DNA of 60,616 bases from Verrucomicrobiota bacterium (GCA_021324235.1 JAJPJM010000157.1:1-60616); one strand, 5' to 3'; positions 3,280 through 38,666 are shown, numbered from the stretch's first letter. Numbers and translations: made by a program. Notes: generated by a model not told the origin, from the letters alone.

Positions 3280-3378
3280 AACCGGAACAATACAGAATGT
3301 CGTCAAGCCGGCAGTCAAGGCCATCCGCGACTGGTAATTCTTCCGGCACCGTTCTACCCTCTGCCTTCGTGAAACGTT

Positions 3379-4116
3379 ATGTTTGAAAACATCGGCGAGA
3401 TTATTCTGTTGTTCTGGCGTACGATGCTGGCTCTGCCGCTGGCCTGGCGGCAGCGCCAGAAGGTCTTCGAGCAGTTTTTCGAAATCGGCAATGCCAGCCT
3501 GCTGATGGTCTGTGTGCTGTCGTTTTTCATCGGCGCCGTCATCGCGCTGCAGACCGGCCCGGTGCTGGTGGAGCGCAGTCTTTCCAGCGCCGTGGGCGGC
3601 GTGGTGGGCATCTCCATCGCCAAGGAACTGGCGCCGGTAATGATGGCGATCCTGATCGCCGGCCGCATCGGCTCGGCCATGGCGGCGGAGATCGGTTCCA
3701 TGCGCGTGTACCAGGAAATTGACGCCTTGCGAACCATGAATATCGACCCGATCCACTATCTGGTGTTGCCGCGCCTGGTGGCCATCGCGCTTGGGCTGCC
3801 GATGCTGGTGGTCATTTCCATTCTCGTAGGCTGGTTTGGCGGTGCAGTCGTCGCCGACATGAACAGCCACATGAACATTCCCTTCCAGGTGTTTTTCTCC
3901 GACCTGCGGGACATTGTCCAGCCCAAGGACGTGGCCAACGGCGTGTTCAAGAGTTTTTGTTTCGCGCTGATCATCGGTGCGGTCTCCTGCCACCAGGGTT
4001 TGGCGACCATCGGCGGACCGCGTGGTATCGGGCGTTCGGTGACCAAGGCGGTGGTTAATTCCATCATCCTGATCGTGATTTTCGACTACGTGCTGACCCG
4101 TATTCTTTTGAAATGA
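3379..4116 (+). CDS. mlaE: MlaE-family ABC permease
   Basis: Signature KELAPVMMAILIAGRIGSAMAAEIGSMRVYQEIDALRTM. Confidence 0.95.
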   Translation: MFENIGEIILLFWRTMLALPLAWRQRQKVFEQFFEIGNASLLMVCVLSFFIGAVIALQTGPVLVERSLSSAVGGVVGISIAKELAPVMMAILIAGRIGSAMAAEIGSMRVYQEIDALRTMNIDPIHYLVLPRLVAIALGLPMLVVISILVGWFGGAVVADMNSHMNIPFQVFFSDLRDIVQPKDVANGVFKSFCFALIIGAVSCHQGLATIGGPRGIGRSVTKAVVNSIILIVIFDYVLTRILLK

Positions 4117-12841: not shown

Positions 12842-12972
12842 GCGCGTGGAGAAACAAAACAGCTTGGGCGCCAGGCCGCAATGAAAATTGACGTTAAACT
12901 GTTTGGAAAGACGGATTTCCGCCGGATGACAGGCCCTCCCTCCGGGCGGTCAAATTCGAGTGGGCAAACGGT

Positions 12973-13049
12973 TGGTGGGCCTGCTCGGACTTGAACCGAG
13001 AACCAAAGCATTATGAGTGCTCTGCTCTAACCAATTGAGCTACAGGCCC
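12973..13049 (-). tRNA. tRNA-Ile2 (CAT anticodon, lysidine type)
   Basis: Minus strand reads GGGCCTGTAGCTCAATTGGTTAGAGCAGAGCACTCATAATGCTTTGGTTCTCGGTTCAAGTCCGAGCAGGCCCACCA: cloverleaf with encoded CCA; body resembles ileX-type rather than Met tRNAs. Confidence 0.93.
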
Positions 13050-13228
13050 ACTGAAGAATGATTCCAGAAGCCATCGCAACTTTCAATAGCAGAGCGGAAA
13101 AGTTGAGGGCACATCACCGTTCCTCACCCGCTTGGCGCACGCATTGGCCGGGGATCTTTGCCTCCAACGCGGGCGCGGATGGTCTTCGACACCGCCGCGT
13201 TCCGGGACGCATTTTGCAGACACGCCGC

Positions 13229-13594
13229 TTATTCCTTCGCCCGGACGGCAGTCATGGCCAGCCAAAGCCAGCCGGCCAGAAAACTGATTCCGCCGACCGG
13301 CGTGATGGCGCCCAGCCAGCGCGCCCCGGTGGCGGCCAGCAGATAAAGCGAGCCGGAAAAAATCACGATGCCCGCCAGAAAGCACCACCACGGTCCGGCG
13401 GCCGGTGGCTTCCGTCCGGCCAGCACAAACAGCATGACGGCATGAAGCAAATGGTACGAAGCCGCTGTCTCCCAAATCGCCGCCGTTCCATTTTGCGCCA
13501 GGATTTTATTCAGGCCGTGCGCGCCAAACGCGCCGAGCGCCACGGCCAGAAAGCCGGCGATGGCTGCAACCCGGGTGGCATTGGCGCTGGTCAC
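13229..13594 (-). CDS. DUF423 (YgdD/TMEM256) small membrane protein
   Basis: AVALGAFGAHGL, WETAASYHLLHA, IFSGSLY, LGAITPVGG. Confidence 0.93.
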   Translation of the reverse strand: MTSANATRVAAIAGFLAVALGAFGAHGLNKILAQNGTAAIWETAASYHLLHAVMLFVLAGRKPPAAGPWWCFLAGIVIFSGSLYLLAATGARWLGAITPVGGISFLAGWLWLAMTAVRAKE

Positions 13595-13680
13595 AATGGA
13601 AGCCAGAATGGCAGACAGGCCCGGCCGGTGAAATTCAATAATTGGTGTTCATTCGCGTTTATTCATGTTTAATTTCGTTC

Positions 13681-14544
13681 GTGAAAATCATCACCGACGA
13701 ACGCTGCGCCGGTTACGTGCGTTATGGTCATCCCGAAAATCCCCGGCGGGTGGTGGCGACCATTGCCCATCTGAAACAGCAGCGGGAACTGCCGCTCGAC
13801 TGGGCGGCTCCGGGCGAAGTGAGTGACGAACAGATTTTGCGCGCGCATGCGCCGGAACTGCTCGCGCGCCTGAGAATTCCGGAGGATTTCGACGGGGACA
13901 CTCCATTTTACGAAGACATTGCCGATTATGCCCGCGCGTCCGCAGCTGCGGCGCTGGGCGCCCTGAACGCCGCGCGCCGCGGTGAAAACGTGTTCAGCCT
14001 CATGCGCCCGCCCGGCCATCACGCCACCCGGGACCAGGCGATGGGTTTTTGTTATTTGAACAATATTGCGATCGCCGCGCTGGAAGCCACTGCGACCGGT
14101 GCGAAACGCGTTGCCGTATATGATTTCGATGTGCATCACGGAAACGGCACGGAAGCCATCCTGCTGGACCAGCCCGGCGTCGCTTTTTTTTCCATCCACT
14201 TGCATCCCTTTTATCCCGGTACCGGCGTCGCGAATGTCGGCAAGAATTGTTTCAATTATCCCATCACGCCGTCCACGTTGCGTGAAACTTACCGTGCCAC
14301 CCTGATCCGCTCGCTGGACGATTTGAAGAAATTCAAGCCTGACCTCATTGCCGTGTCCGCCGGATTCGATGCTTATATCCGCGACCCGATTGGCGACGGT
14401 GTGCTGGAAGTTGATGATTTTCAATGGCTTGGGTCGTCACTGCGGGCATTCGGCGTGCCAATGTTCAGCGTGCTGGAAGGTGGTTACAGCCGCGATTTAC
14501 CCGAACTCATCTTTGCCTATCTCCAGGGCGTGCAGGGAAAATGA
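13681..14544 (+). CDS. Histone deacetylase / acetylpolyamine amidohydrolase family protein
   Basis: GHPE, RPPGHHA, GFC, DFDVHHGNGT, SAGFD, LEGGY; GTG start at 13681 chosen. Confidence 0.93.
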   Translation: MKIITDERCAGYVRYGHPENPRRVVATIAHLKQQRELPLDWAAPGEVSDEQILRAHAPELLARLRIPEDFDGDTPFYEDIADYARASAAAALGALNAARRGENVFSLMRPPGHHATRDQAMGFCYLNNIAIAALEATATGAKRVAVYDFDVHHGNGTEAILLDQPGVAFFSIHLHPFYPGTGVANVGKNCFNYPITPSTLRETYRATLIRSLDDLKKFKPDLIAVSAGFDAYIRDPIGDGVLEVDDFQWLGSSLRAFGVPMFSVLEGGYSRDLPELIFAYLQGVQGK

Positions 14545-14784
14545 TCCTCCTTCCAAAGCGATGACTGGCTTTGGCCGGGTTTGCCGGAATCGACTTCGTT
14601 CAAAAAAATGCGAGCCCATCGGTGCGCGGGTTTATCGGGCCAACCCTGCCACCAATGCCAGTCTGGTCCCCCACAAAAAAGCCATTGATCTGAAGGCAGT
14701 CCTGCGATCTCCGGCTGCCGGCCCGACGTAGTCATGGCAAAAAGGCGTTGACTCAAACGAAGACGGAAGTTTAAGGTCCGAACC

Positions 14785-15858
14785 ATGGACCTCAAACGGA
14801 TTTTCCTCGGGCTTTTGCTGGGACTCTTTTGCACGGCGGTTCCAACGCTTTTCGCGGATGACACAATGTCATCCGCCATCAAGCCGGTCACGCCGAACGC
14901 CTCGCCGGAGGCGGTGCAATTGCTGCAATATCTTTACAGCATTTCCGGCAATCATACGCTGGCCGGCCAGCATGCCGTGCCGCTGTTGCGTTCCGCGCGG
15001 CTGGTCGAGGCGCAACGCGCCGGCGGGCATCCCCCGGCGGTTTTTGGCATGGATTTCGGTTTCGATTCGCCCGGCACCTGGGACGGCATCAACTTCCGCC
15101 AGCAAATTGTGGACGAAGCGATCCAGAAATATCACGAAGGCTACGTGATTGTGCTCATGTGGCATGCAGTGCGGCCGATCGACGATGAGCCGGTGAAATT
15201 CAAGGATTCCATTCAGGGCCGGTTGACCGATGAACAGTGGCACGACTTGATCACGCCGGGAACGGAAATCAACGAACGCTGGAAATCACAGGTGGATGTC
15301 ATCGCGTGGTTTCTCAAGCAATTGCGGGACGCGCACGTGCCGGTGCTCTGGCGGCCTTATCATGAGATGAACGGCGGCTGGTTCTGGTGGGGCAAAAAAC
15401 CCGGGGACGACGGTTATAAAAAACTGTATCGGATGCTGTTTGACCGGCTGGTGAACTTTCACCAGCTGAATAATTTGATCTGGGTCTACGGTGCCAACGA
15501 AGTGACACCGCCGAATGTGGATCCCTACGACACCTATTATCCGGGAGATGACGTCGTGGATGTTCTCGGCACGGACATTTACCACACGGGCTTTGCCCGG
15601 AACCAATACGACCAGTTGCTGGCCCTGGCCAAAAACAAACCGATTGCCCTGGCGGAGGTGGGGGCCGCCCCGTCGCCGGAAATTTTAAAGGAACAACCGC
15701 GCTGGACCTGGTTCATGGTTTGGGACGATCCCACCGAAGGCGGAGCCACGGCGCGGGGAATACGCGCCACCTACAACTGCGACCAGGCCATTACGCTGGA
15801 CCGGCTGCCCTGGGTGGAGGCGGGACATCCGGCCGACCACGCGTTCACCCAGCCGTAG
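14785..15858 (+). CDS. Secreted GH26 glycoside hydrolase (beta-mannanase-like)
   Basis: Signal peptide; LWRPYHEMNGGWFWWG, YYPGDDVVDVLGTDIY, KPIALAEVG. Confidence 0.92.
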   Translation: MDLKRIFLGLLLGLFCTAVPTLFADDTMSSAIKPVTPNASPEAVQLLQYLYSISGNHTLAGQHAVPLLRSARLVEAQRAGGHPPAVFGMDFGFDSPGTWDGINFRQQIVDEAIQKYHEGYVIVLMWHAVRPIDDEPVKFKDSIQGRLTDEQWHDLITPGTEINERWKSQVDVIAWFLKQLRDAHVPVLWRPYHEMNGGWFWWGKKPGDDGYKKLYRMLFDRLVNFHQLNNLIWVYGANEVTPPNVDPYDTYYPGDDVVDVLGTDIYHTGFARNQYDQLLALAKNKPIALAEVGAAPSPEILKEQPRWTWFMVWDDPTEGGATARGIRATYNCDQAITLDRLPWVEAGHPADHAFTQP

Positions 15859-17905
15859 CGGCATTGGAATCGATCGGCAGCAGGATGCGCACGGTACCGT
15901 GTTGGCCGGCCTGCGGCGGAACAATTTCAAGTTTGCCGTGGTGCGTCTCGATGATCTTCCGGCTTACGGTCAGACCCAGGCCCAGTCCGACATTGCGGGT
16001 GGTGAAAAAGGGCGAGGGAACCTTCTGCGCGGTTTCCGAAGTGAAGCCCGTGCCGTTGTCCTGCACTTCAATCTCCAGTTCGCGCCGGCCGGCGTGGCTG
16101 GGATTGGTGTGCAGGCGCACGCCGATTTTGGGCTCCTTGGGATTGGCCTGCAACGCGTTGAGCATGATTTCCGCCAGCGCATGTTTGAGGGCGGCCCGGT
16201 CGCCGGTGATGACGATGGGTTTGCCGCTGTCCTCGCACTGCAACTGGGCTTTTTCGGTGGGTTGATGCCTGCGTGCCTCCTGGTAAGCCTCTTCGATCAG
16301 GGGTTCGACCGGAAACGCCTGCGATTCCGGTTCGTTTTCCCGCGCCAGAAAACGCATCTGATTGAGCAAACGCGAGACGCGCTTGACGCCGTCGGCGAGC
16401 GCAAAGTCGAGCGACTTGCGGAACTCTGCGTCCCGGAATTTTTCCCCCAGCAACTGCTGGTGGGTGGAGAGCGGCACCATGGCGTTGCCGATTTCGTGTG
16501 CCAGCCGGTCGGCCATGGCCTTGATGAGGCGGAGATTGGCGGCTTCGACTTCCAAATGGCGCAACTGCTCGGTTTGGGTGAGGTCTTCCGCGGTGAGCAG
16601 GGCGGAAACCGGCACGGTGGAATTCCCCCGCTGAAACGGCACGACATTGACGCTATAAACGGAGCCCGGGGAGCTCTCGGGTTCGTAACGGAACGGGCCC
16701 ATGGCCGCGCCGGTGTGCAGGACCTGGTAGATCTTCGCGCCCAGCACCTGCGGCAAATCGCTGAACTCGAGTTCGCCGGTGCGCCGGTTTTTGTGGCCGA
16801 AATGCCGGCGCGCGGCTTTGTTGGCATGGAGCACCCGGAGGTCGCGCCCGACGACGACGCACGCGCTGCTGAGTTCGCGCAGCACGTCCGTCATCATTTC
16901 ATGGTTGCCGGCGAGCTGGTCATGCAACCAGATGTTGCGCAGGGCCAGGCCGACCTGTTCGAGCAATCGAAAGATCAGCTCCAACTCGGTGTTGACCAGC
17001 GGCTCGCCGGTGACCCGGCCGTCAAAAACGGCGACGCCCACGACGGTTTCGCGATCGAGCACCGGCACGGCGACCTGGGCGCCGAGCAATTCAAATTCCT
17101 TCTGGGCCTCGGCATCGGCCCGGGCTTCGTCGCTGTCGCGGCGGAGGATTCGGCCCAACCGGACCAGTTGCCCGCCGATGCCGGCCTCGAGTGACAGTTC
17201 AAAATGTTCGAGCAACCCCGAGGAAAGCCCAATGGCGGCGGTGGCATGCAGCCCGCGGTTCTGGCCCGGAGACAGGGTTTGGCCGAGCGGCAGCGCGGGA
17301 CGGTTCACGAAAATGGCGGCGCGATTGACGCTGAAGATTTCACGCAGAAACAGCAGGAATTGTTTGAGCATGGCCTCGGCATTCAGGGAATGCGTGAGGA
17401 TGGATGAAAAATCGCGCAGGACCCCCAATGTTTGCGCCGCGTTGACCGAGCGGGCGGAAGACGGTTCCACCGGACGCGAAAAGGCGGACGATGGCATCAA
17501 GGGGGTATGGATGGCCGGTTGACCGGTACGAGCCTGTTCGTATTTGGGGGTCGCCCACAGGCGTTCCAGCAGGGAACCCAGCAGGCGGGCGCGAACGGGC
17601 TTGGTCAGCACATGAGTGACACCGTGCAGAAAAGCTTCCTCCTCCCATTCGGACTGGCTTTCGGCGGTGTAGGCGATGATGGGACATTGGTTGTCGCGCC
17701 GACGAAGCCGTTCGATGATCCAGATTCCCTGAACCCCGATGAGGTCCATATCCAGAATGCACGCGCTAATCAGCCCGTGAACCAGCAGGGGCTCGGCTTC
17801 CTCCACGCCGATCCGATGAACAACCCGATACTCCTCCCGGTTCAGACCCGCCTCAATCACTTCGGCGAAGTCTGGATGAGGAGACAACACCAAAATGGTT
17901 TTCAT
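15845..17905 (-). CDS. Cytoplasmic REC-GAF-PAS-histidine kinase
   Basis: Atypical N-terminal receiver, GAF- and PAS-like middle, AHEIGN H-box, NALQA, DNGTG, GLGLGL. Confidence 0.9.
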   Translation of the reverse strand: MKTILVLSPHPDFAEVIEAGLNREEYRVVHRIGVEEAEPLLVHGLISACILDMDLIGVQGIWIIERLRRRDNQCPIIAYTAESQSEWEEEAFLHGVTHVLTKPVRARLLGSLLERLWATPKYEQARTGQPAIHTPLMPSSAFSRPVEPSSARSVNAAQTLGVLRDFSSILTHSLNAEAMLKQFLLFLREIFSVNRAAIFVNRPALPLGQTLSPGQNRGLHATAAIGLSSGLLEHFELSLEAGIGGQLVRLGRILRRDSDEARADAEAQKEFELLGAQVAVPVLDRETVVGVAVFDGRVTGEPLVNTELELIFRLLEQVGLALRNIWLHDQLAGNHEMMTDVLRELSSACVVVGRDLRVLHANKAARRHFGHKNRRTGELEFSDLPQVLGAKIYQVLHTGAAMGPFRYEPESSPGSVYSVNVVPFQRGNSTVPVSALLTAEDLTQTEQLRHLEVEAANLRLIKAMADRLAHEIGNAMVPLSTHQQLLGEKFRDAEFRKSLDFALADGVKRVSRLLNQMRFLARENEPESQAFPVEPLIEEAYQEARRHQPTEKAQLQCEDSGKPIVITGDRAALKHALAEIMLNALQANPKEPKIGVRLHTNPSHAGRRELEIEVQDNGTGFTSETAQKVPSPFFTTRNVGLGLGLTVSRKIIETHHGKLEIVPPQAGQHGTVRILLPIDSNAATAG

Positions 17906-27551: not shown

Positions 27552-28751
27552 TTGGCGTGGTTTGAAGTAAGCTCTGGAAATGTGAAAAGCCTTATTCGAT
27601 TCACAGGCTATCTCTTGTTGTTCGGATTTGTCGTTTTTCCAGCACGAGCCGCGTTCACGTCCCTTTACATTTTCGGAGACGGCGTTTCCACCACGACCAA
27701 CAACATACAAACTGGCACGCTGGCCGCATATTATTATGGCTACCGTTTTTGTAACGGCCGGGTCTGGGTTGAACTGCTGGCGCAGCAACTCAATCTGACC
27801 AATAACTACTGGTACGCCACCAACAGCTCAAACCAGTTGTCCTACACCAACCTATCCGCTTCCAGTACCAACTGGTCCTACTCCAGCAACAACAACTCCT
27901 ACTTCGCTCATTCCAGTACCATTGTCGTGGCGGATGTCAGCAATTTTGTTGCGCCGGTGGATGTGTCGAACGACCTGTTCATCGTCTGGGTCAATGACGC
28001 TGACTTTGTTTATGACATGCAACATTACACTCCCTATGCCTCGAACAACATAGCCGTATGGACCAATGCCATCAACCAATCCATCTCCAATCATTTTACC
28101 ATCATTACGAACCTCTACGCCAAAGGCGTTCGCACCTTGGTTATGCCCGACGCGGTGGATATTACCGAGGTTCCGGACTATTCCGGTCGGACCGCTCCTG
28201 AAAAGACCTTCGTTCGCCAAAGGACCATTGATTTCAATACCGCTTTCACTGCTACATTAAGCAACGCGATGGTCTTGCACCCCGACCTAAAAATTTATCA
28301 GCCGGACTTTTTCTCCCTGCTCGACAACATACTGACGAATGCCGCCTCGTATGGGTTAACCAATGCCCTCACTGGCGGACATACCACCGATGCGCTGGAT
28401 GATGGCACGCTAGCGAACAAGTCCCTGAATGGTCCGGGAGCAAATTATATCTTCTGGGATTATTTGGATCCATCCGCGAAGGCCCAGGCCATCATGGTTG
28501 ATGTGGTCCAACAACTCATCGCGCCGCCGCAAATCCGACAAATCACATCGCAGAACGGCACCAATCAGTTGAACCTGACCAACGTGCCGGTTGGTTTGAA
28601 TGGGGTCGTGAATGGCAGCACCGATTTCGTGGGTTGGACTTCCGTGACCAATTTCAACAGCACCAACTCCGTGCAACCGGTTTTTATCCCGATTACCGGG
28701 CCGTTATGGTTTTACCGGCTGAATTTCCCCTTTGCCTGGACCTGGCCCTGA
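27552..28751 (+). CDS. Secreted SGNH/GDSL-fold protein with substituted catalytic residues
   Basis: LYIFGDGVS, RFCNGRVWVE, WVNDADF, LYAKGVRT, YIFWDYLDPS; start uncertain (GTG 27582 possible). Confidence 0.82.
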   Translation: MAWFEVSSGNVKSLIRFTGYLLLFGFVVFPARAAFTSLYIFGDGVSTTTNNIQTGTLAAYYYGYRFCNGRVWVELLAQQLNLTNNYWYATNSSNQLSYTNLSASSTNWSYSSNNNSYFAHSSTIVVADVSNFVAPVDVSNDLFIVWVNDADFVYDMQHYTPYASNNIAVWTNAINQSISNHFTIITNLYAKGVRTLVMPDAVDITEVPDYSGRTAPEKTFVRQRTIDFNTAFTATLSNAMVLHPDLKIYQPDFFSLLDNILTNAASYGLTNALTGGHTTDALDDGTLANKSLNGPGANYIFWDYLDPSAKAQAIMVDVVQQLIAPPQIRQITSQNGTNQLNLTNVPVGLNGVVNGSTDFVGWTSVTNFNSTNSVQPVFIPITGPLWFYRLNFPFAWTWP

Positions 28752-29888: not shown

Positions 29889-29992
29889 GCGAACGAGTAT
29901 AGCACGTTTTTGCGGTGCGGGAAGCTGAAAGCAACTGGTGTTGGACACGCCGCCATTTTTGTGTATTTTGGCCCGCGAAGGGGTCGAAGCCC

Positions 29993-31420
29993 ATGGCTAT
30001 GAACGAATCGAAGTTGAGCACTGCGCAAAAGGCACTGCAAATCAATCTGGATGCCGCCAAATATGGCGCGTTTGCCGAGATCGGCGCCGGGCAGGAGGTG
30101 GCGCGCTGGTTCTTCCACGTGGGTGGCGCCGCGGGCACGGTGGCCAAAACCATGTCCGCCTATGACATGGCGGTAAGCGACGCGATTTACGGCCCGTCGG
30201 ACCGCTACGTCAGCCGCAAGCGCCTGCAGGCGATGCTCGATTACGAATTCGACCTGCTGTTGCACCGTCTCGACCGGACGCGCGGCGACAAAAGCGCTTT
30301 TTTTGTTTTCGCCGATACGGTGGCGACACACAGTTTCTCCCACCAGACCGACGGCCAGGGCTGGCTGGGCATCAAATTCCAGGCCGAGCCGCACGGGCCG
30401 CCGTCGGAAATCATCATCCATGTACGGATGCTGGACCGGGAAAATGTCCGCGAACAGGAGGCGCTGGGCATCATCGGCGTGAATTTGATCCACGGCGCGT
30501 TTTATCATCATCACGAACCGGAGGCCTTGATCGGCCGGCTCATGGACGATCTGTCCCGCGACCGGATGGAGGTGGACATGATCAAATTCTCCGGGCCGTG
30601 CTTTACCGACGTGGACAACCGGCTGATGGCGTTGCAACTGGTGGAGCAGGAACTCACGGACACCGCCATGTTCACCGCCGACGGCGAAACGGTCGTGGCG
30701 GGCGAGGTGCTCTACAAGAAGCCGGTGCTGGTCGAACGCGGCAGTTTCCGGCCCCTCACCAATCCCATGCTCGACATGCTGGAGCGCGCGCAGGAACAGT
30801 TCCTCAAGGAGGAATCGCTCAAAGGCGAAACGCCGGTGGTCATCACGGAAATGACCCTGCGCCAGTTGCAGGTGGACGATGTGATTGATCACCGCGATTT
30901 TCTGGACCGCGTGGACACCTTGAGTGCGCTGGGCAAGACCGTGCTCATTTCCAGTTTCCTGCGTTACCACCGCCTGGTCATGTATCTCTCGAAATATACG
31001 CAAAAAACCATCGGCCTGCCGCTGGGCCTGGTCCGGTTGCGCGACGTGATGGACGAAAGTTTTTATACCGACCTCGAGGGCGGACTGATGGAATCGCTCG
31101 GCCAGTTGTTCAAGAACAGCGCCAAACTGTACGTTTACCCGTCCCTCGACCGCAAAACCGGGAAGTTGACCACCGTGGAAAACATGGAAGTCGCGCCGAA
31201 CCTGCGCCATCTCTACGCGCACCTGGTCGAAAACCGGTTTGTGGAAAACATCCGCAATTACAACCCCGATTATTTGAAGATTTATTCCAGCGACGTGCTG
31301 GTCAGGATCAAGGCCGGCGACGCTTCCTGGGAAAAGCTCGTCCCGCCGCCCATTGCCCAGGTCATCAAGGCCAAGCGATTGTTCGGCTGGAGCGAAAAAG
31401 CCGCCGCAGTGACGGCTTGA
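29993..31420 (+). CDS. Conserved cytoplasmic protein with C-terminal nucleotidyltransferase-like (NadD-like) region
   Basis: YGAFAEIGAGQEVARWFF...GGAAGTVAK N-domain; RGSFRP and YSSDV...WEKLVP resemble the NadD fold; no signal peptide. Confidence 0.7.
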   Translation: MAMNESKLSTAQKALQINLDAAKYGAFAEIGAGQEVARWFFHVGGAAGTVAKTMSAYDMAVSDAIYGPSDRYVSRKRLQAMLDYEFDLLLHRLDRTRGDKSAFFVFADTVATHSFSHQTDGQGWLGIKFQAEPHGPPSEIIIHVRMLDRENVREQEALGIIGVNLIHGAFYHHHEPEALIGRLMDDLSRDRMEVDMIKFSGPCFTDVDNRLMALQLVEQELTDTAMFTADGETVVAGEVLYKKPVLVERGSFRPLTNPMLDMLERAQEQFLKEESLKGETPVVITEMTLRQLQVDDVIDHRDFLDRVDTLSALGKTVLISSFLRYHRLVMYLSKYTQKTIGLPLGLVRLRDVMDESFYTDLEGGLMESLGQLFKNSAKLYVYPSLDRKTGKLTTVENMEVAPNLRHLYAHLVENRFVENIRNYNPDYLKIYSSDVLVRIKAGDASWEKLVPPPIAQVIKAKRLFGWSEKAAAVTA

Positions 31421-31460: not shown

Positions 31461-32270
31461 TCAGACCACAACCCCCCGTTTCGGCGACACGCCCATCTGG
31501 TAACGCCCCGTCCGGATTCGCAGCCGTGTCCGGGCATTGAACGCCCGCGACAAGATTCTGGTTTTGAGCATTTTTAATTTTTCCCCGGCGGCGAGTACCC
31601 GGCCGTTTTTCAAAATCAGCACGTGCGAAAACACCGGCATGATTTCCTCAACGTGATGCGTCACCAGCACGAGCGTCGGCGCATTCCGGTCCCGGCCCAG
31701 CCGCTGGAGAAATTGCAGGAAATGTTCGCGGGCGGCGGGATCCAGCCCGGCGCAGGGTTCGTCGAGAATCAACACCCGTGGCCGGGCCATCAGCGCCCGG
31801 CCGATCAATACCCGCTGCCGTTCGCCTTGCGAGAGCACCCGCCAGGGGCGTTCCGCCAGGAGGAGGCAGTCAATTTGCCGGAGAATCCGCCGCGCGCGGA
31901 TCTTGTCGGGCCGCGTCAGGCGGCCCCAGAAATCAATCATCGCGTATTTGCCGCTGGCGACGGTTTCGAGCGCCGGTTCGTCGTCGGCCATCATCTGCCG
32001 GACGGCGGAGCTGACCAGGCCGATGTGTTGGCGCAGTTCGCGCCAGTCCGCCTGGCCGTAGCTTTTGCCGAGCAGCGAAATTTCCCCCGCCGTCGGCGTC
32101 AGGTAACCCGTCAAGGCGCTCAGCAACGAGGTCTTGCCCGAACCATTCGCGCCCAGAATCACCCAATGTTGCCCGCGTTCCACGCGCCAGGACACGCCGT
32201 CGAGGATGGCGATGCCGCCGCGCTCGACGCGCAATTCATTCACCGCCAGAATGGTCTTTGCAATCCTCAA
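31461..32270 (-). CDS. ABC ATPase (ModF/YlmA-like)
   Basis: GANGSGKT, LSQGERQR, ILDEPCAGLD, VTHH; exact start uncertain. Confidence 0.9.
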   Translation of the reverse strand: MRIAKTILAVNELRVERGGIAILDGVSWRVERGQHWVILGANGSGKTSLLSALTGYLTPTAGEISLLGKSYGQADWRELRQHIGLVSSAVRQMMADDEPALETVASGKYAMIDFWGRLTRPDKIRARRILRQIDCLLLAERPWRVLSQGERQRVLIGRALMARPRVLILDEPCAGLDPAAREHFLQFLQRLGRDRNAPTLVLVTHHVEEIMPVFSHVLILKNGRVLAAGEKLKMLKTRILSRAFNARTRLRIRTGRYQMGVSPKRGVVV

Positions 32271-32400
32271 GTAACGGGAGGATTGTATGCCAGGAGCGGG
32301 TGATGGGGAAATTTTTCCGCCGCCGCCGGCGACCGGGCCGGGAGGGGACGGAATGCGCTATTGTGGACCGGCGGTGTTGCCGGTAGGCTTGCATGTCCCG

Positions 32401-32724
32401 ATGAGAGAGATATCGCTGGAACAACTCAGCCTCGCGGATTTTGCCGGCTTGAGGCATTCGCGGTTTCGCGTGCAGGCGGATGCCAGGAACACCGTGGAAC
32501 TGGAATTGGTCGAGGCCACACCCGCCGCCTCCGGTTCCTCCCCGCCCTCCGGAAACTTTTCGTTGCTGTTCCATGGCCCCCTCCGCCCGATTCTGGCGCA
32601 GCGCATTCACCGCTTCGAGCATGACCAGCTTGGCCGTTTCGATCTGTTCATTGTACCGGTCGGGCAGACCGACGCCGGAACGCAGTATCAGGCGGTTTTC
32701 AACCGCCTGATCCGGCCGGAGTGA
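32401..32724 (+). CDS. DUF6916-like small beta protein
   Basis: LELVEA...FSLLFHGP...LAQRIHRFEH..LG.FDLFIVPVG...YQAVFN. Confidence 0.85.
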   Translation: MREISLEQLSLADFAGLRHSRFRVQADARNTVELELVEATPAASGSSPPSGNFSLLFHGPLRPILAQRIHRFEHDQLGRFDLFIVPVGQTDAGTQYQAVFNRLIRPE

Positions 32725-33229
32725 ATCCGGTCGGTCGCCATTCCATTTCTTCGTAAAAGCCCGCTTCGCCGGCGGTGGCGAAGCCCAGCCGCCGGTACCA
32801 CCCGACGGGCCGCGTGTTTTTCAACACGGAGAGCGTCACGGTTTTGCCCGCCCGCGCCGCCTCCGCACACACACGTTGCATCAGGAACGTGCCGATTTTT
32901 TGGTTTCGGAATCCGGGCCGCAACGCCAGATCCACCACGCGAATCTCCCGGTCCAGCCGGAGAATGATCATCCGCCCGATTCGCTCCGGGCCGCGCAGGA
33001 TGATGGAGAAGTCCGCGGTCGGAAACATGGTGCGGTATCCCTGGCGCATGGCTTTGAATTGCATATCCAAAAAGGCCGCGCGGGTCGGGGCATCCCAATC
33101 GGTCAAATCCAGCTCCTCCTGTCGCGTACCGGCGTAAACCTCAAACAAAAAGATTTCGTCTGCCGCTGCTTCGGGCCTTAGCACAATGTCCTCAAATCCC
33201 GATTTAATCCGGTCGCCCAAGTCATTCAT
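32699..33229 (-). CDS. GNAT acetyltransferase of tail-collar gene clusters
   Basis: LRPEAAADEIFLFEVYAGTR, FLDMQF, VDLALRPGFRNQKIGT, YRRLGF. Confidence 0.88.
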   Translation of the reverse strand: MNDLGDRIKSGFEDIVLRPEAAADEIFLFEVYAGTRQEELDLTDWDAPTRAAFLDMQFKAMRQGYRTMFPTADFSIILRGPERIGRMIILRLDREIRVVDLALRPGFRNQKIGTFLMQRVCAEAARAGKTVTLSVLKNTRPVGWYRRLGFATAGEAGFYEEMEWRPTGFTPAGSGG

Positions 33230-33292
33230 TCGCAATACCCTATAATTAAGAAATTGAACGTTGTGATTAGTTGGATTACTATTATAACCGCA

Positions 33293-33730
33293 ATGCCCAC
33301 ACGCCGACAATTTTTAATCAATTGTTCCACCCTGACGCTGGCGGCGGGATTTGTGCCGGCGGCATTTTTTTCAAAATCAGTCCGGGCGGACGGGCTTTCC
33401 AGGAACCGGATTGGGTTCGATGTTTTCCGGGATAATACCGGGTCGATTTTCACCGTCCACGCTGAAACCGCGGCGGCGACCCGATTGAAACTGATGGTGG
33501 CCGAACGGTATCAGGCCGCCGATCCCGGCGCCCACATCGCGCCCGACGCCCGAAACGAAAATTTTTCCGTGCTCTTTCGCCGCACCGCCGGACCCATGTT
33601 GCCGCAAAATACTTATGTCTTCGAGCATTCCGATCTCGGGCGGTTTCCCCTGTTTATCGTGCCGGTCCGCGTCGGGCAGGATCCGGGGCACGATTGTTAT
33701 GAGGCGGTTTTCAACCGGTTACCCTGTTGA
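33293..33730 (+). CDS. Tat-signal DUF6916-like protein
   Basis: MPTRRQFL twin-arginine signal; FSVLF...LPQNTYVFEH..LG.FPLFIVPV...YEAVFN. Confidence 0.85.
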   Translation: MPTRRQFLINCSTLTLAAGFVPAAFFSKSVRADGLSRNRIGFDVFRDNTGSIFTVHAETAAATRLKLMVAERYQAADPGAHIAPDARNENFSVLFRRTAGPMLPQNTYVFEHSDLGRFPLFIVPVRVGQDPGHDCYEAVFNRLPC

Positions 33731-33733
33731 ACG

Positions 33734-34270
33734 ATGAGCAATCCCTACATTGGTGAAATCAGGATCTTTGCGGGCATTTTTGCGCCGGTGGGTTGGGCGT
33801 TTTGCGACGGGTCGTTACAGTCGATTTCGCAATATACGGCGCTTTTCCAGCTCATCGGCACGACTTATGGCGGTGACGGACAAACGACTTTTGCCCTGCC
33901 CAATTTGCTGGGCCGTCTTCCCTTGCATCAAGGCACCGATTCACAGGGCAATCGCTATGTCCTGGGTGAGAGTGGTGGCGCGGAAACCGTGGCCTTGGGT
34001 CCGACCCAGATCCCGGTTCATGCCCATGGAGTGCAGGCCAGTTCGGGCAGCGGCAGCGTCAACAACCCGGCGTATCGCATCGATTTTCCCGTGAACAATG
34101 TGTGGGCAAACTGGACCGGCAGCCAATATAGCGACCAGCCGCCAAACGCCCAGATGAACGCCGGCGCATTGACGACGGCCGGCAGCAATCTGGCGCATGA
34201 CAACCGGATGCCCTATCTGGCGGTCAATTTCATCATTTCCCTGTTCGGGGTCTTTCCGTCACAAACTTGA
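33734..34270 (+). CDS. Phage tail-collar domain protein (MdpB-like) 1
   Basis: PYIGEIR, APVGWAFCDG, LFQLIGTTYGGDGQTTFALPNL, FIISLFGVFP. Confidence 0.93.
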   Translation: MSNPYIGEIRIFAGIFAPVGWAFCDGSLQSISQYTALFQLIGTTYGGDGQTTFALPNLLGRLPLHQGTDSQGNRYVLGESGGAETVALGPTQIPVHAHGVQASSGSGSVNNPAYRIDFPVNNVWANWTGSQYSDQPPNAQMNAGALTTAGSNLAHDNRMPYLAVNFIISLFGVFPSQT

Positions 34271-34273
34271 GCC

Positions 34274-34771
34274 ATGTCATCGCCCTACCTGTCAGAAATC
34301 CGGATTATTTCCTTCAACTTCCCCCCCAAGGGTTGGGCGTTTTGCAACGGTCAGATTTTGCCGATCAACCAGAATCAGGCGCTCTTTTCGCTCTTGGGCA
34401 CGACCTACGGAGGCGATGGACGAACCACGTTTGCCCTGCCCAATTTGCAGGGTCGGGTGCCGATGCATATGGGCAATAATTTCATTCTGGGTCAGACCGG
34501 CGGCGAAACGGCGCATCTCCTCACCCTGTCGGAAATGCCGGGTCATACGCATCCGCCGGTGGTCAGTTCGAACCCGGCCAACCAGGGCAGTCCGCAAAAT
34601 AATTTTTTTGCGAATGGAAATCAGCCCGGTTTCAATTCCACACCGACCGGGACCCTGAATTCCGCCACCGTTGGTTCCGCCGGCGGCGGCCAGGCGCACA
34701 CCAACCTGCAACCCTTTCTGGTGCTGAATTTTGTCATCGCCTTGCAGGGAATTTTTCCGTCACAAAGCTGA
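34274..34771 (+). CDS. Phage tail-collar domain protein (MdpB-like) 2
   Basis: PYLSEIR, PKGWAFCNGQ, LFSLLGTTYGGDGRTTFALPNLQGR, FVIALQGIFP. Confidence 0.93.
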   Translation: MSSPYLSEIRIISFNFPPKGWAFCNGQILPINQNQALFSLLGTTYGGDGRTTFALPNLQGRVPMHMGNNFILGQTGGETAHLLTLSEMPGHTHPPVVSSNPANQGSPQNNFFANGNQPGFNSTPTGTLNSATVGSAGGGQAHTNLQPFLVLNFVIALQGIFPSQS

Positions 34772-34780
34772 ACAATATTT

Positions 34781-35317
34781 ATGTCCGATCAATTCGTTGC
34801 CGAAATCAGGATTGTTCCGTTCAATTTCGCGCCGCTCGGCTGGGCGTTGTGCAACGGACAGGTGATGCCCATCAGCCAGAACACCGCGCTCTTTTCACTG
34901 TTGGGCACAACGTACGGTGGCGACGGAAAAAGCAACTTCGCGCTGCCCAATTTGCAGGGCGCCGCCCCTCTGGACGCCGGAAATGGGGCCGGCCTGTCCA
35001 ATTACGTCGAGGGCCAGTCCGGAGGGGAGACGGCGGTCACTTTGGTTTCGGCGCAGTTGCCGTCACACACTCATGGCGTGTCCGTCAGCAGCATCGGTGG
35101 CGATGTGAACAGTCCGATTGGCGCTGTTTTTTCAACGGCGCACATGGGCAAGACCCCGACCAACATGTATGCCGCCGCCGCGGGCGGCGCTCCGGGGATC
35201 ATGAGTCCGCAGGCAGTGCTGTCCGCGGGCGGTGGTCTGCCGCACAACAACCTGCAGCCCTATCTGGTGCTGAATTTTATCATCGCGTTGCAGGGAATTT
35301 TTCCGGCGAGATCGTAA
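34781..35317 (+). CDS. Phage tail-collar domain protein (MdpB-like) 3
   Basis: DQFVAEIR, GWALCNGQ, LFSLLGTTYGGDGKSNFALPNL, FIIALQGIFP. Confidence 0.93.
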   Translation: MSDQFVAEIRIVPFNFAPLGWALCNGQVMPISQNTALFSLLGTTYGGDGKSNFALPNLQGAAPLDAGNGAGLSNYVEGQSGGETAVTLVSAQLPSHTHGVSVSSIGGDVNSPIGAVFSTAHMGKTPTNMYAAAAGGAPGIMSPQAVLSAGGGLPHNNLQPYLVLNFIIALQGIFPARS

Positions 35318-38011
35318 ATGATACGGATCCGAAACATTTTTCCGGTGCTGGTGGCGTTTGCGTCATTGGTTTCGCAATCGCTGCTCGCGTCCGGGCCGTT
35401 CACCGTCAACACGGCCACGGACACCCATGCTGCCAGCCCCGCCACGTCGCCGCGGGACGCCAGCGGGCATGTTTCCCTGCGTTCGGCGATTGAAGCCGCC
35501 AATGCGCAGGCCGGCGCGACGACTATTTTGCTCCCGCCCGGGACCTATAATCTGACGCTCGGAGAGCTGGACATGGCCCCCGGCGGCGGTGAGACCAACA
35601 CCATTCTGGCCACGGGCAGCGCGCTGAACACCATCGTCAACCAGACCGACGGCTCCAACCGCGTATTCAACCTTGACGCCAGTTCCGCCGGTGGCGCGGC
35701 CGTCGGATTGATTGGCATCACCATTCAAGGCGGCCATGACCGGGCTGACCTGCTGGGAGGCGCGGGGATTCTGGCCGGCGGCCTGACCAACCAACCGCTC
35801 GACACGCTCACACTGGCGGATTGTATCATCGCCAACAATTCCTGCACGCCACCCAACACGAATTATACCGCGCAACCGGGCGGCGGTGTGCAAATGGCCG
35901 GTGGAAATTTAAACGTCACGGGCTGCCTGTTTTCAAATAATGTTTCGGCCGCCAGCCCCGGCGGAGCCATCGCCTTCATTGCCTCCACGATGGCGGGCGG
36001 CGGCAGTGGCGGCACGCTGGAGATTGACACATCCGTTTTCGTGAACAATGGACTCACCAACACGAGCGCCAGCGGACCGGATGGCGCCGGCGCCATCTAC
36101 ATCAACAGCACCAGCAATGCCGTGCACAGCCTCAGCGACTCGACGTTCTCCGGCAATTCGGTGATCGGCCTGTACACCGGCAATGTTGTCGGCGGTGCCA
36201 TCGACTTGAACACCGGTACGCTGAATGTGGACAGCACCAGCTTCACCAGCAATTCGGTCAGCGGAGCGTTGCAGGAGGGCGGCGCGATTTATGTGGACTC
36301 GGGCACGTTAAACGTCAGTTTTTCGCGATTCGAGGGCAACACGGCGCCGGGTGGTGGCAGCGCCATTTTTAATCATACGAGCAACGGAGCCGCTACGAGT
36401 GCCGAGAACAACTGGTGGGCGTCCAACGCCGGTCCCGGCCCGGCGGTCTCCGGCGCCAGCGTGGCGGCCTGGCTGGAACTGAATCTGTTCGCCAGTCCCA
36501 ACCCGGTTTTGATTAACAATATCGCCGTGCTGGACGCGACGTTTGAAATCAATTCCGTTGGCGACGTCATCGCGCCGGCGAACCTGAGCCTGCTGGTGGG
36601 AATGCCCGTGACGTTTGGCAATGCCGTGGGCGGAATCATCTCCGGTGCGCAGACGACCATTCAAAGTTCCGGGACGGCCACCGCCCTCTTCACTGCGGGC
36701 AATGTTGTCGGCCCGGGCAGCGCGGGCGCCACCGTGGATGGAGCAACCGCCACCACCCCGATTGACATTGTGGCCACCAACCTCAGTGTTTTAAACACCA
36801 ACGACAGCGGTCCCGGATCGTTGCGGCAGGCCATCACGGACATTTATCCGGGCGGAACGATTACCTTCGATCCGGGTCTCGCCGGCCGGACCATTTACCT
36901 GACCAGCGGCGAATTGTTGCTGGCTCAAAATCTGAACATTAATGGTCCGGGCGCGAACCTGTTGACGGTCAGCGGCAATCAATTGAGCCGCGTCTTCGAT
37001 ATTCCGCCGGGAGTGATCGTCGCCATTTCCGGATTGAGCGTTGCGGACGGGCTGGCGGGTGGGTCCGTTCCGAACCCCAATCTGGGAGGCGGCATTTACA
37101 ATGCCGGCGCTTTGACTCTGATGAATTGCGCCGTTTACGGCAATTCCGCTCCCAACAGCGGTCTGGGCTGGGGAGGCGGCATTTACAGCACCAATATCTT
37201 GAACCTGACGGGCTGCACCGTCGGGCCAACCAATGAGGCCGGCGAAGTCGGCGGCGGAATTTATGTTCACTTCGGCAGTCAGTTGCAAATGCTCAACTGC
37301 ACGGTCGCCAGCAACAGCTCGCCGTTTCAAGTCGGTGGAATCGCTGCCAACACCGGAGCCACCGTCTCGCTGACGAATTGTACCATTACCGGAAATTCGG
37401 ACGCGGCCTACGGCGGCGGCTACGGCGGCCAGCCACCTCAGCTTAAAAACACGATCATTGCCGGAAACAGCGATTCCGGCAGCGCGGTCATTGATGATCT
37501 TCAAACATTCAACGGCGCGGTTCTGTCCCTGGGCCACAATCTGATCGGCATTACCAACAGCACCACCGGCTGGCTGACCTCGGATCTGACCGGCAGCACC
37601 AGTTCTCCGCTGAACGCGCGACTTGGTCCGCTTGCCAACAACGGCGGTCCGACCCTGACCTGCGCCCTGTTGACCGGTTCGAACAGCCCCGCCATCAACG
37701 CCGGCGACAACTCCGACGCCCCGCCGTTTGACCAGCGTGGCCCCGGTTTTCCACGCATTGTCGGCGGCACGATTGATATCGGCGCGTATGAACTGATCCC
37801 GCCAACGTTGAACATCGCTCACCTGCCTGCCCAGGTGATTTTGTCGTGGCCGACCAATGCCGTCGGGTACGTGCTGGAATCGGCGCCAGCGCTCAATCCG
37901 CCGGTCACCTGGACGCCCGCCGGAGCGCCCGGCATCGTGGGAAGTCAATACTACGTCACTAACGGGATCACCCCCGGCGGGAAACAATTTTTCCGCCTGG
38001 ACGCCCACTGA
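35318..38011 (+). CDS. Large secreted beta-helix surface protein (CSLREA-like/Pmp repeats, choice-of-anchor Q, terminal beta domain)
   Basis: Signal peptide; FTVNTATD..SLRSAI; GGAI/FxxN repeats; NDSGPGSLRQAI; LGPLANNGGPT...DQRG...DIGAYE; ends QFFRLDAH. Confidence 0.88.
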   Translation: MIRIRNIFPVLVAFASLVSQSLLASGPFTVNTATDTHAASPATSPRDASGHVSLRSAIEAANAQAGATTILLPPGTYNLTLGELDMAPGGGETNTILATGSALNTIVNQTDGSNRVFNLDASSAGGAAVGLIGITIQGGHDRADLLGGAGILAGGLTNQPLDTLTLADCIIANNSCTPPNTNYTAQPGGGVQMAGGNLNVTGCLFSNNVSAASPGGAIAFIASTMAGGGSGGTLEIDTSVFVNNGLTNTSASGPDGAGAIYINSTSNAVHSLSDSTFSGNSVIGLYTGNVVGGAIDLNTGTLNVDSTSFTSNSVSGALQEGGAIYVDSGTLNVSFSRFEGNTAPGGGSAIFNHTSNGAATSAENNWWASNAGPGPAVSGASVAAWLELNLFASPNPVLINNIAVLDATFEINSVGDVIAPANLSLLVGMPVTFGNAVGGIISGAQTTIQSSGTATALFTAGNVVGPGSAGATVDGATATTPIDIVATNLSVLNTNDSGPGSLRQAITDIYPGGTITFDPGLAGRTIYLTSGELLLAQNLNINGPGANLLTVSGNQLSRVFDIPPGVIVAISGLSVADGLAGGSVPNPNLGGGIYNAGALTLMNCAVYGNSAPNSGLGWGGGIYSTNILNLTGCTVGPTNEAGEVGGGIYVHFGSQLQMLNCTVASNSSPFQVGGIAANTGATVSLTNCTITGNSDAAYGGGYGGQPPQLKNTIIAGNSDSGSAVIDDLQTFNGAVLSLGHNLIGITNSTTGWLTSDLTGSTSSPLNARLGPLANNGGPTLTCALLTGSNSPAINAGDNSDAPPFDQRGPGFPRIVGGTIDIGAYELIPPTLNIAHLPAQVILSWPTNAVGYVLESAPALNPPVTWTPAGAPGIVGSQYYVTNGITPGGKQFFRLDAH

Positions 38012-38138
38012 GTTCGCGCCGGGTTGTTGGTCCGCTTTTGTCGCGGCATAAACGGGCTCGTTGCCGTCGGGTTTCCAAATGGCCGGGGGCGGCAGTCTGA
38101 AGGTTGCCTGTGTTTGAGGATGGCGAGGCTTTCCCAGG

Positions 38139-38666
38139 TTATAATTCCCGGATTTCCGTCCACAGCGGTTGCAAATCGTCATCGGCCAGGGCCATTTGTT
38201 TGAGGGCATCCGGGTCGCCGGCTTTCATCGCCCGCTGCAACCATTCTCGCGCAACGTCGGGTTGTTGCAGCTGGCAGGCGTAGCACGCCAGATTGTAGGC
38301 GATGACCGGTTCGTGGGGAAATTTCTCCGCCGCCGGCGACAGCGCTTCCCAGGCTTGCGGCAACCCGCCGTCCGGCACGCGGCGCAACGCATAGGCACGA
38401 TGCAGCCAGCCGGCGCAATCGTCCGGTGCCGCCGTCAGTTCGGCCTGCGCAATTTTCAGCGCGTCGGCCCAGCGTTGTTCGCGGGCGCAAATGGTCCAGC
38501 GCGCCTCCAGCACGGCGGGATGTTTTTGTTGGATCGCCGAAATCAAATCCAGTTCGGCCTGCGCCTCGGCGACACAACCCAGCCCCAGCCACCCGACGGC
38601 GGCGTCAAGGTGGTGCGAATCCGGCGGTCCCAGTGGTTGCACCGGCACAGGAAGCCTGCCGGACAT
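38139..38666 (-). CDS. TPR-repeat protein
   Basis: HHLDAAVGWLGLG, WLHRAYALRR, AYNLACYACQL, ALADDDL. Confidence 0.8.
   Translation of the reverse strand: MSGRLPVPVQPLGPPDSHHLDAAVGWLGLGCVAEAQAELDLISAIQQKHPAVLEARWTICAREQRWADALKIAQAELTAAPDDCAGWLHRAYALRRVPDGGLPQAWEALSPAAEKFPHEPVIAYNLACYACQLQQPDVAREWLQRAMKAGDPDALKQMALADDDLQPLWTEIREL

Follow-up and report, generated by a model that had tools for sequence, protein, structure and literature searches.

A chromosomal cassette of three tail-collar genes in Verrucomicrobiota and other bacteria: a candidate recognition head derived from a phage tail-fibre tip

What are three tandem genes for phage-type tail-collar proteins doing in a bacterial chromosome, where no other tail genes accompany them? 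The question is raised by positions 32401-38011 of a contig from a soil bacterium of the Verrucomicrobiota (GCA_021324235.1 JAJPJM010000157.1:1-60616; this whole stretch of 60,616 nucleotides is called the window below). The list of open reading frames (ORFs) and family scans of the window place seven genes there (Table 1), which encode three paralogous collar proteins (A, B and C), a GNAT acetyltransferase, a DUF6916 protein without a signal peptide, a second DUF6916 protein with a putative signal for twin-arginine translocation (Tat-DUF6916), and a predicted secreted protein of 897 residues. The original prediction, made from the sequence of the locus, was that of a domesticated, phage-free fibre-tip module that assembles with or decorates the large protein. 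The explanation that best fits the evidence given here, although tentative and falling just short of probable, is that of a widespread cassette which bacteria have built from the tip of a phage tail fibre, and which would act as a recognition head together with a large exoprotein.

A conserved chromosomal cassette

The window's locus is one copy of a chromosomal cassette that is widespread in Verrucomicrobiota, Acidobacteriota and other phyla. A first neighbourhood survey, seeded with the alignment of Tat-DUF6916, gave 29 loci (30 with the window), which come from Verrucomicrobiota, Acidobacteriota, a Binatia bin and others. Of the 30, 27 have collar genes; a contig end truncates one of the remaining loci, and DUF6916 stands alone in the other two. 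There are three collar genes in 18 loci, a single one in 7, and cut ones in 2. A GNAT gene is likewise found in 27/30. Because this survey was seeded by the Tat copy, a second one was run from a collar seed (clade B, see below) on metagenome contigs, yielding 80 loci. Three collar genes, in the order A-B-C or B-A-C, occur in 66 of the 80, and all 14 loci with fewer end within 79 nucleotides of a contig end. Nine of these loci are well flanked, with at least 2.5 kb on both sides, and GNAT was present in 9/9 and, by profile search, a signal-less DUF6916 beside the collar block in 8/9. These surveys bear out the recurrence of collar-triplet/GNAT clusters that the original prediction had noted. 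The core cassette consists of three collar genes, GNAT and a signal-less DUF6916, with the Tat copy added in some lineages, including that of the window. Among 301 genomes of the phylum, DUF6916 scored above its cut-off in four, and the same four genomes, and no others, yield the four best full-length matches to the collar B profile.

Four layouts can be distinguished. In type I, that of the window, the order is DUF6916, GNAT on the opposite strand, Tat-DUF6916, A, B, C and the large protein, and in type II it is DUF6916, Tat-DUF6916, B, A, C and GNAT; type III has a single collar gene, and type IV comprises rearranged forms from Acidobacteriota.

Similarity searches indicate that the collar proteins are descended from phage parts. 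All three paralogs match PF07484 (92-100 bits against a cut-off of 24; E-values from 2.2e-26 to 7.2e-29), as the original prediction had it, and they match the tail-protein family phrog_9116 at E 1e-22 to 4e-28 (A, 1.2e-26; B, 3.7e-28). Collar A is similar to the long tail fibre of PDB entry 8kec (E 2.5e-7), its HAH being aligned to HQH of the fibre. Minor tail proteins from phages of Microbacterium and Arthrobacter align with about 90% of collar C at 37-41% identity; the best phage match of this paralog, with 41.5% identity and a coverage of 90%, is to a tail collar protein of an actinophage.

A maximum-likelihood tree was computed from 58 collar proteins after rows covering 140 residues or fewer had been dropped; it omits the genes truncated at contig ends in L020, L027 and L032 (survey loci carry L numbers) and the split third genes of L010 and L023. 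These last match as two pieces in different frames (L010, 11507-12038; L023, 11460-11979), and the large protein of L023 is also split, into two overlapping ORFs (12075-16465); the splits are either frameshifts or assembly errors of those bins. Clade A contains 17 rows (support 98/93), clade B 18 rows (91/93) and clade C 13 rows (98/83), and the single-collar loci form a clade of their own (7 rows, 96/98). Thirteen loci contribute exactly one gene each to clades A, B and C. By this phylogeny, the three paralogs are ancient orthogroups of which one member each has been kept.

The 58 proteins are built alike: none has a signal peptide, all begin directly with the collar domain, and each carries exactly one PxHxH motif (58/58). 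In T4, the HxH that follows the collar domain is a metal site on the trimer axis. The two ends of the collar proteins are well conserved (0.7-0.98) and residues ~100-150 poorly so (0.21-0.56), a distribution that fits a variable binding face.

Possible site of action, candidate helper proteins and the large protein

Where such a head would act can be judged from longer relatives in which collar units are fused. Among 8000 candidates scored, 1911 proteins matched at E<=1e-10, and the best 120 are mostly single chains of two units (~330-350 residues) or three units (~470-610 residues); by a crude pattern, 46 of these 120 have a PEP-CTERM-like end and 28 start directly with a collar domain. The three-unit proteins P0319 and P0329 carry, in this order, a Sec-type N-terminal signal, the motif of the collar C-terminal strand, three short collar units and a PEP-CTERM end. 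In addition, two genomes of the same phylum encode giant proteins of 1721, 1579 and >2262 residues (L049-L051), in which a tandem of three collar domains is accompanied by fn3, RCC1, InlB-type, TIG or Calx-beta repeats, and one of the giants starts with a clear signal peptide. A literature search returned no paper with both 'tail collar' and 'PEP-CTERM'. A PF07484 protein of Ruegeria pomeroyi is reported from an exoproteome (PMC4949626). Based on the Sec/PEP-CTERM relatives, the giant secreted triple-collar proteins and the R. pomeroyi exoproteome, an extracytoplasmic action of the collar head together with the large protein is favoured, with enough reservation to leave it slightly short of an even chance.

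Some of the fused forms also bear on how the chains might contact each other. P0277 (L049, 8335-6800), P0319 and P0329 start, after their signal, with the motif that ends the free collar proteins (like LALN.I.A.QGI.P), and this motif is absent from their last unit. Such an apparent circular permutation points to a packing of each chain's C-terminal strand on the collar domain of the next chain.

The partners of the free collar proteins are recognizable families. The two DUF6916 proteins score 95.2 and 65.8 bits with PF21880 (cut-off 27), and of 1.84 billion cluster representatives (50% identity), 7274 match the DUF6916 profile at E<=1e-3 and 2338 at E<=1e-10; a literature search returned no paper that mentions DUF6916 or PF21880. 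The signal-less copy has no RR motif, and in the ESM Atlas it leads to one unnamed cluster at 0.75, which is a lead only. The other copy begins MPTRRQFL, so that TRRQFL starts at residue 3 of the 145-residue form, which is also the form of its database homologs; in the alignment, R4 and R5 are invariant in 28/28 homologs and F7 is nearly so. This N-terminus, a twin-arginine consensus followed by a hydrophobic stretch, fits a Tat substrate. The AlphaFold2 model has a mean predicted local distance difference test (pLDDT) score of 82.3, with means of 86-97 for blocks of 10 residues over residues 41-140; Tat-DUF6916 consists of a putative twin-arginine signal and then a small beta-barrel domain. 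A Foldseek search of the PDB with the DUF6916 fold gave nothing at E<=1e-3. The GNAT protein matches PF13508 (Acetyltransf_7; E 3.6e-9, 37.3 bits against a cut-off of 27), PF00583 (Acetyltransf_1; E 5.2e-8, 33.6 bits against 20.7) and, as the weakest of the three GNAT models, Acetyltransf_10 (E 1.2e-6). Its homologs align from about residue 40 of the long ORF. It reaches no equivalog in NCBIfam (RimI, 23.1 bits against a cut-off of 86.4), and the PDB sequence search returned one weak match (2ge3, E 0.003). Of the 56 collar proteins with an initial Met, 54 have a small second residue; from this and the weak RimI-like score one may guess that GNAT acetylates N-termini, but the guess is unlikely to hold.

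Both partners seem to go with a particular state of the collar proteins. Genomes with the fused, Sec-signal collar forms contain no DUF6916 match, and the three giant-fusion loci have neither GNAT nor DUF6916 within ~6 kb, which suggests that GNAT and DUF6916 accompany the free, signal-less state; for DUF6916 this link comes from just the three genome loci, the metagenome patterns having been anchored on the free N-terminus of clade B and returning standard cassettes only.

Since the collar proteins have no signal peptide, decoration of a surface protein by them requires an export route. Export of a folded collar trimer by piggy-backing on the Tat substrate is conceivable here, because the RR pair is invariant in 28/28 homologs and the window's genome encodes TatC (E 4.7e-57); it is a possible but rather doubtful hypothesis, and a lineage-specific one. 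The Tat type occurs in only one of the nine well-flanked collar-seeded loci, and therefore Tat cannot be the general route; most cassettes have no predicted export route for the collar proteins. These numbers speak for a different account, in which the cassette works in the cytoplasm: the collar trimer, GNAT and DUF6916 would, for example, modify or hold the giant protein before its export, or act as a sensor, and the Tat copy would be a side branch. It is also in favour of this account that 0/58 collar proteins have a signal peptide, that the core DUF6916 is signal-less, and that GNAT enzymes need acetyl-CoA and must hence be cytoplasmic. However, the Sec-signal/PEP-CTERM relatives and the giant secreted triple-collar proteins put the same fold outside the cytoplasm, the phage homologs are external receptor-binding tips, and no PADLOC defence model was matched by any of the seven cassette proteins. 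An exclusively cytoplasmic role is therefore considered improbable, though it survives better than the other alternatives.

The candidate partner outside the cytoplasm is the 897-residue protein, which consists of a signal-like hydrophobic N-terminal segment, a beta-helix module (residues 24-490; the N-module below), a second region with a choice-of-anchor-Q domain (NF041518, 75.2 bits against a cut-off of 25) and a C-terminal domain of 77 residues. AlphaFold2 models residues 24-490 as a right-handed beta-helix and then a beta-sandwich (mean pLDDT 95.4). The nearest solved folds found by Foldseek are Rhombotarget A (E 7.6e-5, TM-score 0.47-0.50), AlgE mannuronan epimerases and phage tailspikes, and 31 models of the viral library match at E<=1e-3, mostly pectate-lyase-like tail proteins; the PDB sequence search with the whole protein gave nothing below E 0.24. 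Of the beta-helix surface protein named in the original prediction, the beta-helix is thus upheld by the model; its placement at the surface is a prediction, for which the signal-like segment and the choice-of-anchor-Q domain speak. The last 77 residues (window 37778-38008) weakly match eight other frames of the same genome, of 214-979 residues (E 9e-6 to 3e-3, 27-44% identity); they may form a shared sorting or anchoring domain, named by no library.

The link between the large protein and the collar genes is a matter of synteny. The N-module is single-copy in the window's genome, and homologs of residues ~20-495 lie directly downstream of the collar triple in L008, L009, L010, L012, L014, L015, L016 and L023, with gaps of 0-24 nucleotides wherever the genes of these eight loci are intact. 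The C-terminal parts of these homologs vary among Ig, Big_9/Cadherin_5, PKD and MBG/YDG repeats and choice-of-anchor Q. A different N-module is shared by the single-collar loci L018, L019, L022 and L028, and a third by the type II loci L017, L021, L025 and L033; the NF041518 domain recurs in the large neighbours of L018, L019 and L028, and the last ~690 residues of the L017 protein are shared with L010, L012 and L014 at 55-59% identity. By these comparisons, the N-module goes with the type of cassette, as expected of a docking part, and it is the C-terminal regions that have been reshuffled. What stands of the originally predicted tie between collar and surface proteins is therefore the conserved tight synteny and the presence of collar triples inside giant secreted proteins; assembly or decoration would be an interpretation of both.

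A looser relationship has to be weighed at this point, namely that the collar, GNAT and DUF6916 proteins are self-standing (for example as a secreted lectin) and often lie beside accessory surface-protein genes without contact between the products. In support of the link, an ORF of at least 650 residues lies within 2.7 kb in 8/9 of the well-flanked collar-seeded loci; in favour of loose neighbours, it may be upstream, downstream or on the other strand. The large neighbours also fall into at least three unrelated N-module families plus singletons, and many further proteins contain the type I N-module (at E<=1e-3, 182 of those scored, including Chloroflexi and Actinobacteria, with gene context unseen). 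A gap of 0 nucleotides in the window and 0-24 in its sister loci, N-modules that follow the cassette type in spite of shuffled C-terminal parts, and the fusion of three collar units into giant proteins weigh against mere proximity, and this explanation is judged to be fairly improbable.

Composition and origin of the proposed head

Collar A, B and C most likely form a single 1:1:1 heterotrimer. The evidence is of three kinds. First, A, B and C are retained one each in the 13 loci described above. Second, all six of the signal-less three-unit fusions examined (e.g. P0278 and P0288) have their units in the order A-B-C, as judged by best match to the window's paralogs; the fused units are 40-57% identical to A, B and C, and the five two-unit fusions examined have the orders A-B (three), B-C (one) and B-A (one). 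Third, there is a precedent in the virophage DSLV2, where three consecutive PF07484 proteins are reported to co-purify via one tagged subunit as a complex of ~55 kDa on a native gel, and to form fibres of ~16 nm that bind Synechococcus cells (PMC12724248, J Virol 2025). The heterotrimer of the original prediction thus gains support from sequence and by analogy. Complex prediction for A, B, C and mature DUF6916 (residues 33-145) scored 0.00 twice, a value that stands for no answer in this tool and so bears on binding neither way.

The three paralogs could instead be three different homotrimers with three specificities. The collar-bearing fibres of phage T4 to which the PDB matches lead, gp12 and gp37, are indeed homotrimers, and seven cassettes make do with a single collar gene. 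Separate homotrimers would account neither for the one-each retention nor for the A-B-C order of the six three-unit chains examined, and they run against the precedent of a 1:1:1 complex in DSLV2; the heterotrimer is hence retained, and homotrimers are regarded as distinctly improbable.

That the cassette is a bacterial module free of phage tail genes is supported by searches of the window's genome (3.09 Mb in 185 contigs, 90.9% complete). In the genome-wide profile search, the only collar matches (three) and DUF6916 matches (two) are those of the cassette. There are no matches to sheath (PF04984), Baseplate_J (PF04865), gp25 (PF04965) or HK97 capsid (PF05065) in this 90.9%-complete genome; the search for the tube family PF06841 carries no weight, its control having matched nowhere. 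Five integrase matches exist, none of them on the window's contig. The flanks of the cassette encode DAHP synthase, an ABC ATPase, dienelactone hydrolase, RsmD, Obg and an ECF sigma factor, i.e. housekeeping surroundings, and the phage family search matched no family with GNAT, either DUF6916 protein or the 897-residue protein. The phage-free character claimed by the original prediction therefore holds, and the tailocin or extracellular contractile injection system encoded elsewhere, which that prediction had named as its own refutation, did not appear in the searches of this genome for sheath, Baseplate_J and gp25. That the collar proteins are nonetheless spare fibres of such a system or of a prophage is most improbable: their only named relatives are phage tail families, a contig could be missing from a 91%-complete genome and two of five other cassette-bearing genomes examined do carry a sheath gene, but the window's genome has none of the four hallmark families, the sheath gene is absent from the other three genomes and lies megabases from the cassette or on a different contig in the two, and the constant partners GNAT and DUF6916 match no phage family.

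The following mechanism can be proposed. A, B and C would each give one chain to a single 1:1:1 head, made in the cytoplasm, and in every chain the collar domain would be joined by a single HxH metal clamp, a loop region that varies and a C-terminal strand that is conserved. The head would have dedicated cytoplasmic helpers in GNAT and the signal-less DUF6916, for which the original prediction supposed a role in maturation; as a guess, GNAT would N-acetylate the exposed Ser, Ala or Gly N-termini, and DUF6916 would be a chaperone or adaptor. In the window's lineage, the head, folded and devoid of a signal, would most likely cross the membrane by piggy-backing on the Tat-signal DUF6916. The finished head would act outside the cytoplasm as a sugar- or surface-recognition tip, working with the presumably co-transcribed, Sec-exported beta-helix protein, whose N-terminal module would be matched to the cassette. 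Taken as one joint reading, soil bacteria of many phyla would use a cellular 'tail fibre', in which a metal-clamped heterotrimeric head, acquired from phages and composed of three fixed paralogs, is finished in the cytoplasm by GNAT and a DUF6916 adaptor, is exported without a signal of its own (in the window's lineage on the Tat-signal DUF6916) and docks as a recognition tip on the matched N-modules of polymorphic giant exoproteins; that all of these parts hold together is unlikely.

Apart from the points raised with the alternatives above, several observations weigh against this proposal. Clade B is not strongly supported and is drawn open in the tree, and three genes, the third of L009 and two of L036, belong to none of the clades A, B and C. 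The twin-arginine DUF6916 was found in 24/30 loci of the first survey, a figure biased by the Tat-copy seed; over all 80 collar-seeded loci, DUF6916 was seen in 30, and it was of the Tat type in five of those. The modelled beta-helix fold fits an enzyme and an adhesin alike. A PilZ-type N-terminal domain fold (3kyf, 5vx6, 5y6f) was tried for DUF6916 and rejected, since its best score (Z 8.4, root-mean-square deviation 2.7, 91 aligned) is at the noise level of VIA-align.

If the joint reading is true, it amounts to a new assembly and export logic for bacterial surface recognition. Bacterial collar-domain proteins (MdpB/COG4675, RhiB) have been without a function for decades, and the cassette supplies a fixed partner set for such proteins. 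The cassette families are large and occur in abundant, poorly cultured soil phyla, and a role in cell-surface or glycan recognition would bear on bacterial attachment, feeding and mutual recognition. The cassette would also be a clear case of a phage receptor-binding part that cells have retained without the rest of the tail.

Gene layout, variants and comparison with known systems

The features of the locus are collected in Table 1. The gaps from Tat-DUF6916 through A, B and C to the gene for the 897-residue protein are 3, 3, 9 and 0 nucleotides, the last start codon following immediately on the stop codon of collar C. The GNAT gene is divergent from the collar operon and converges on the signal-less DUF6916 gene, overlapping its 3' end by 26 nucleotides. 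This order, spacing and orientation agree with the original prediction, including the DUF6916-like character of the second gene (PF21880, E 2.6e-27). A scan of 32000-38600 for promoters and terminators gave counts not above those in shuffles. Upstream of the cassette, the window contains two long ORFs (29915-31420, 501 residues; 27552-28751, 399 residues) without a Pfam match at E<=1e-3.

Table 1. Genes of the cassette at 32401-38011 of the window
Feature	Coordinates	Strand	Family evidence
DUF6916 paralog without signal peptide, 107 residues	32401-32724	+	PF21880, E 2.6e-27
GNAT acetyltransferase, 176 residues from the Met that fits homologs	32699-33229 (ORF open to 33310)	-	Acetyltransf_7, _1, _10
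Tat-DUF6916, 145 residues	33293-33730	+	PF21880, E 3.8e-18
Collar A, 178 residues, no signal peptide, PVHAH motif	33734-34270	+	PF07484, E 1.1e-27
Collar B, 165 residues, no signal peptide, PGHTH motif	34274-34771	+	PF07484, E 7.2e-29
Collar C, 178 residues, no signal peptide, PSHTH motif	34781-35317	+	PF07484, E 2.2e-26
Predicted secreted protein, 897 residues	35318-38011	+	Choice-of-anchor-Q domain NF041518, residues 766-826, E 3.4e-21

Several loci depart from the common layouts. In L036 (8360-11002) the order is DUF6916, two collar genes, Tat-DUF6916, the third collar gene and an ORF of 603 residues, and no GNAT was found in this stretch. In the Blastocatellia loci L024 and L029 (10495-11872), which have a single collar gene, two GNAT genes flank the signal-less DUF6916, and the collar gene is followed directly by an ORF of 1313-1315 residues with no detectable similarity to the other large neighbours. 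An ORF of ~540-547 residues lies 35-74 nucleotides after the collar triple in L059 (2242-3861), L066 (8133-9761) and L081 (2613-4253), and the N-termini of these ORFs are alike by eye, with a motif like RILE..VP.S.S.IW; this ORF, absent from the window, may be a further optional member of the cassette. L095 has an ORF of 543 residues upstream of the triple (1873-3501), and its printed start is without that motif.

The cassette can be compared with known systems at several levels. It shares with RhiB and with the 'microcystin-dependent protein' (MdpB, COG4675) the property of encoding non-phage bacterial collar proteins without a defined function; several database relatives bear the name 'microcystin-dependent protein', given by JGI (the Joint Genome Institute). 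COG4675 proteins were detected in a soil metaproteome (PMC5579227), and RhiB, from the Rhizobium rhiABC operon, is described in PMC13133039 as a collar-domain protein of unknown role. Unlike the cassette, rhiABC is quorum-regulated and has one collar gene, with no fixed triple accompanied by GNAT and DUF6916.

Tat hitchhiker complexes, such as E. coli hydrogenase-2 (HybO/HybC) and DMSO reductase (DmsA/DmsB), contain one subunit that carries the twin-arginine signal. By analogy, the cassette has signal-less partners encoded beside a signal-bearing subunit, and the cargo would here be a folded, metal-bound oligomer. The analogy would require DUF6916 to bind the collar proteins, and it is limited by the absence of the Tat copy from most cassettes.

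The single-chain triple-collar proteins (P0278 and P0288; P0319 and P0329; L049-L051) are made of the same units as the cassette, but with three in one chain. In their exported forms the order is permuted and the single units are shorter, and the GNAT and DUF6916 neighbours are missing within ~6 kb at the three genome loci.

In phages, the tip is where a longer fibre chain ends at its C-terminus, and it is a homotrimer attached to the tail. The cassette proteins resemble such tips in having a collar domain followed by the HxH motif (8kec), and in a whole-length similarity of 37-41% to actinophage minor tail proteins; the match to the T4 gp12 short tail fibre (1ocy, 1pdi) is weak (E 0.09). They are unlike phage tips in being three free-standing paralogs with no shaft, and there are no tail genes in the cassette.

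Finally, the cassette resembles the DSLV2/Aquatic Virophage 1 lineage in its three consecutive, co-directional PF07484 genes, the products being of ~180 residues there and 165-178 here. In that lineage, the genes are viral neighbours of the minor capsid gene, and their products have been modelled as sitting on the capsid (PMC12724248), whereas the context here is one of chromosomal housekeeping genes. The likeness is one of gene order, size and family; to the three collar genes that they have in common, the bacterial cassette adds a dedicated GNAT, two DUF6916 proteins and a large, predicted secreted protein.

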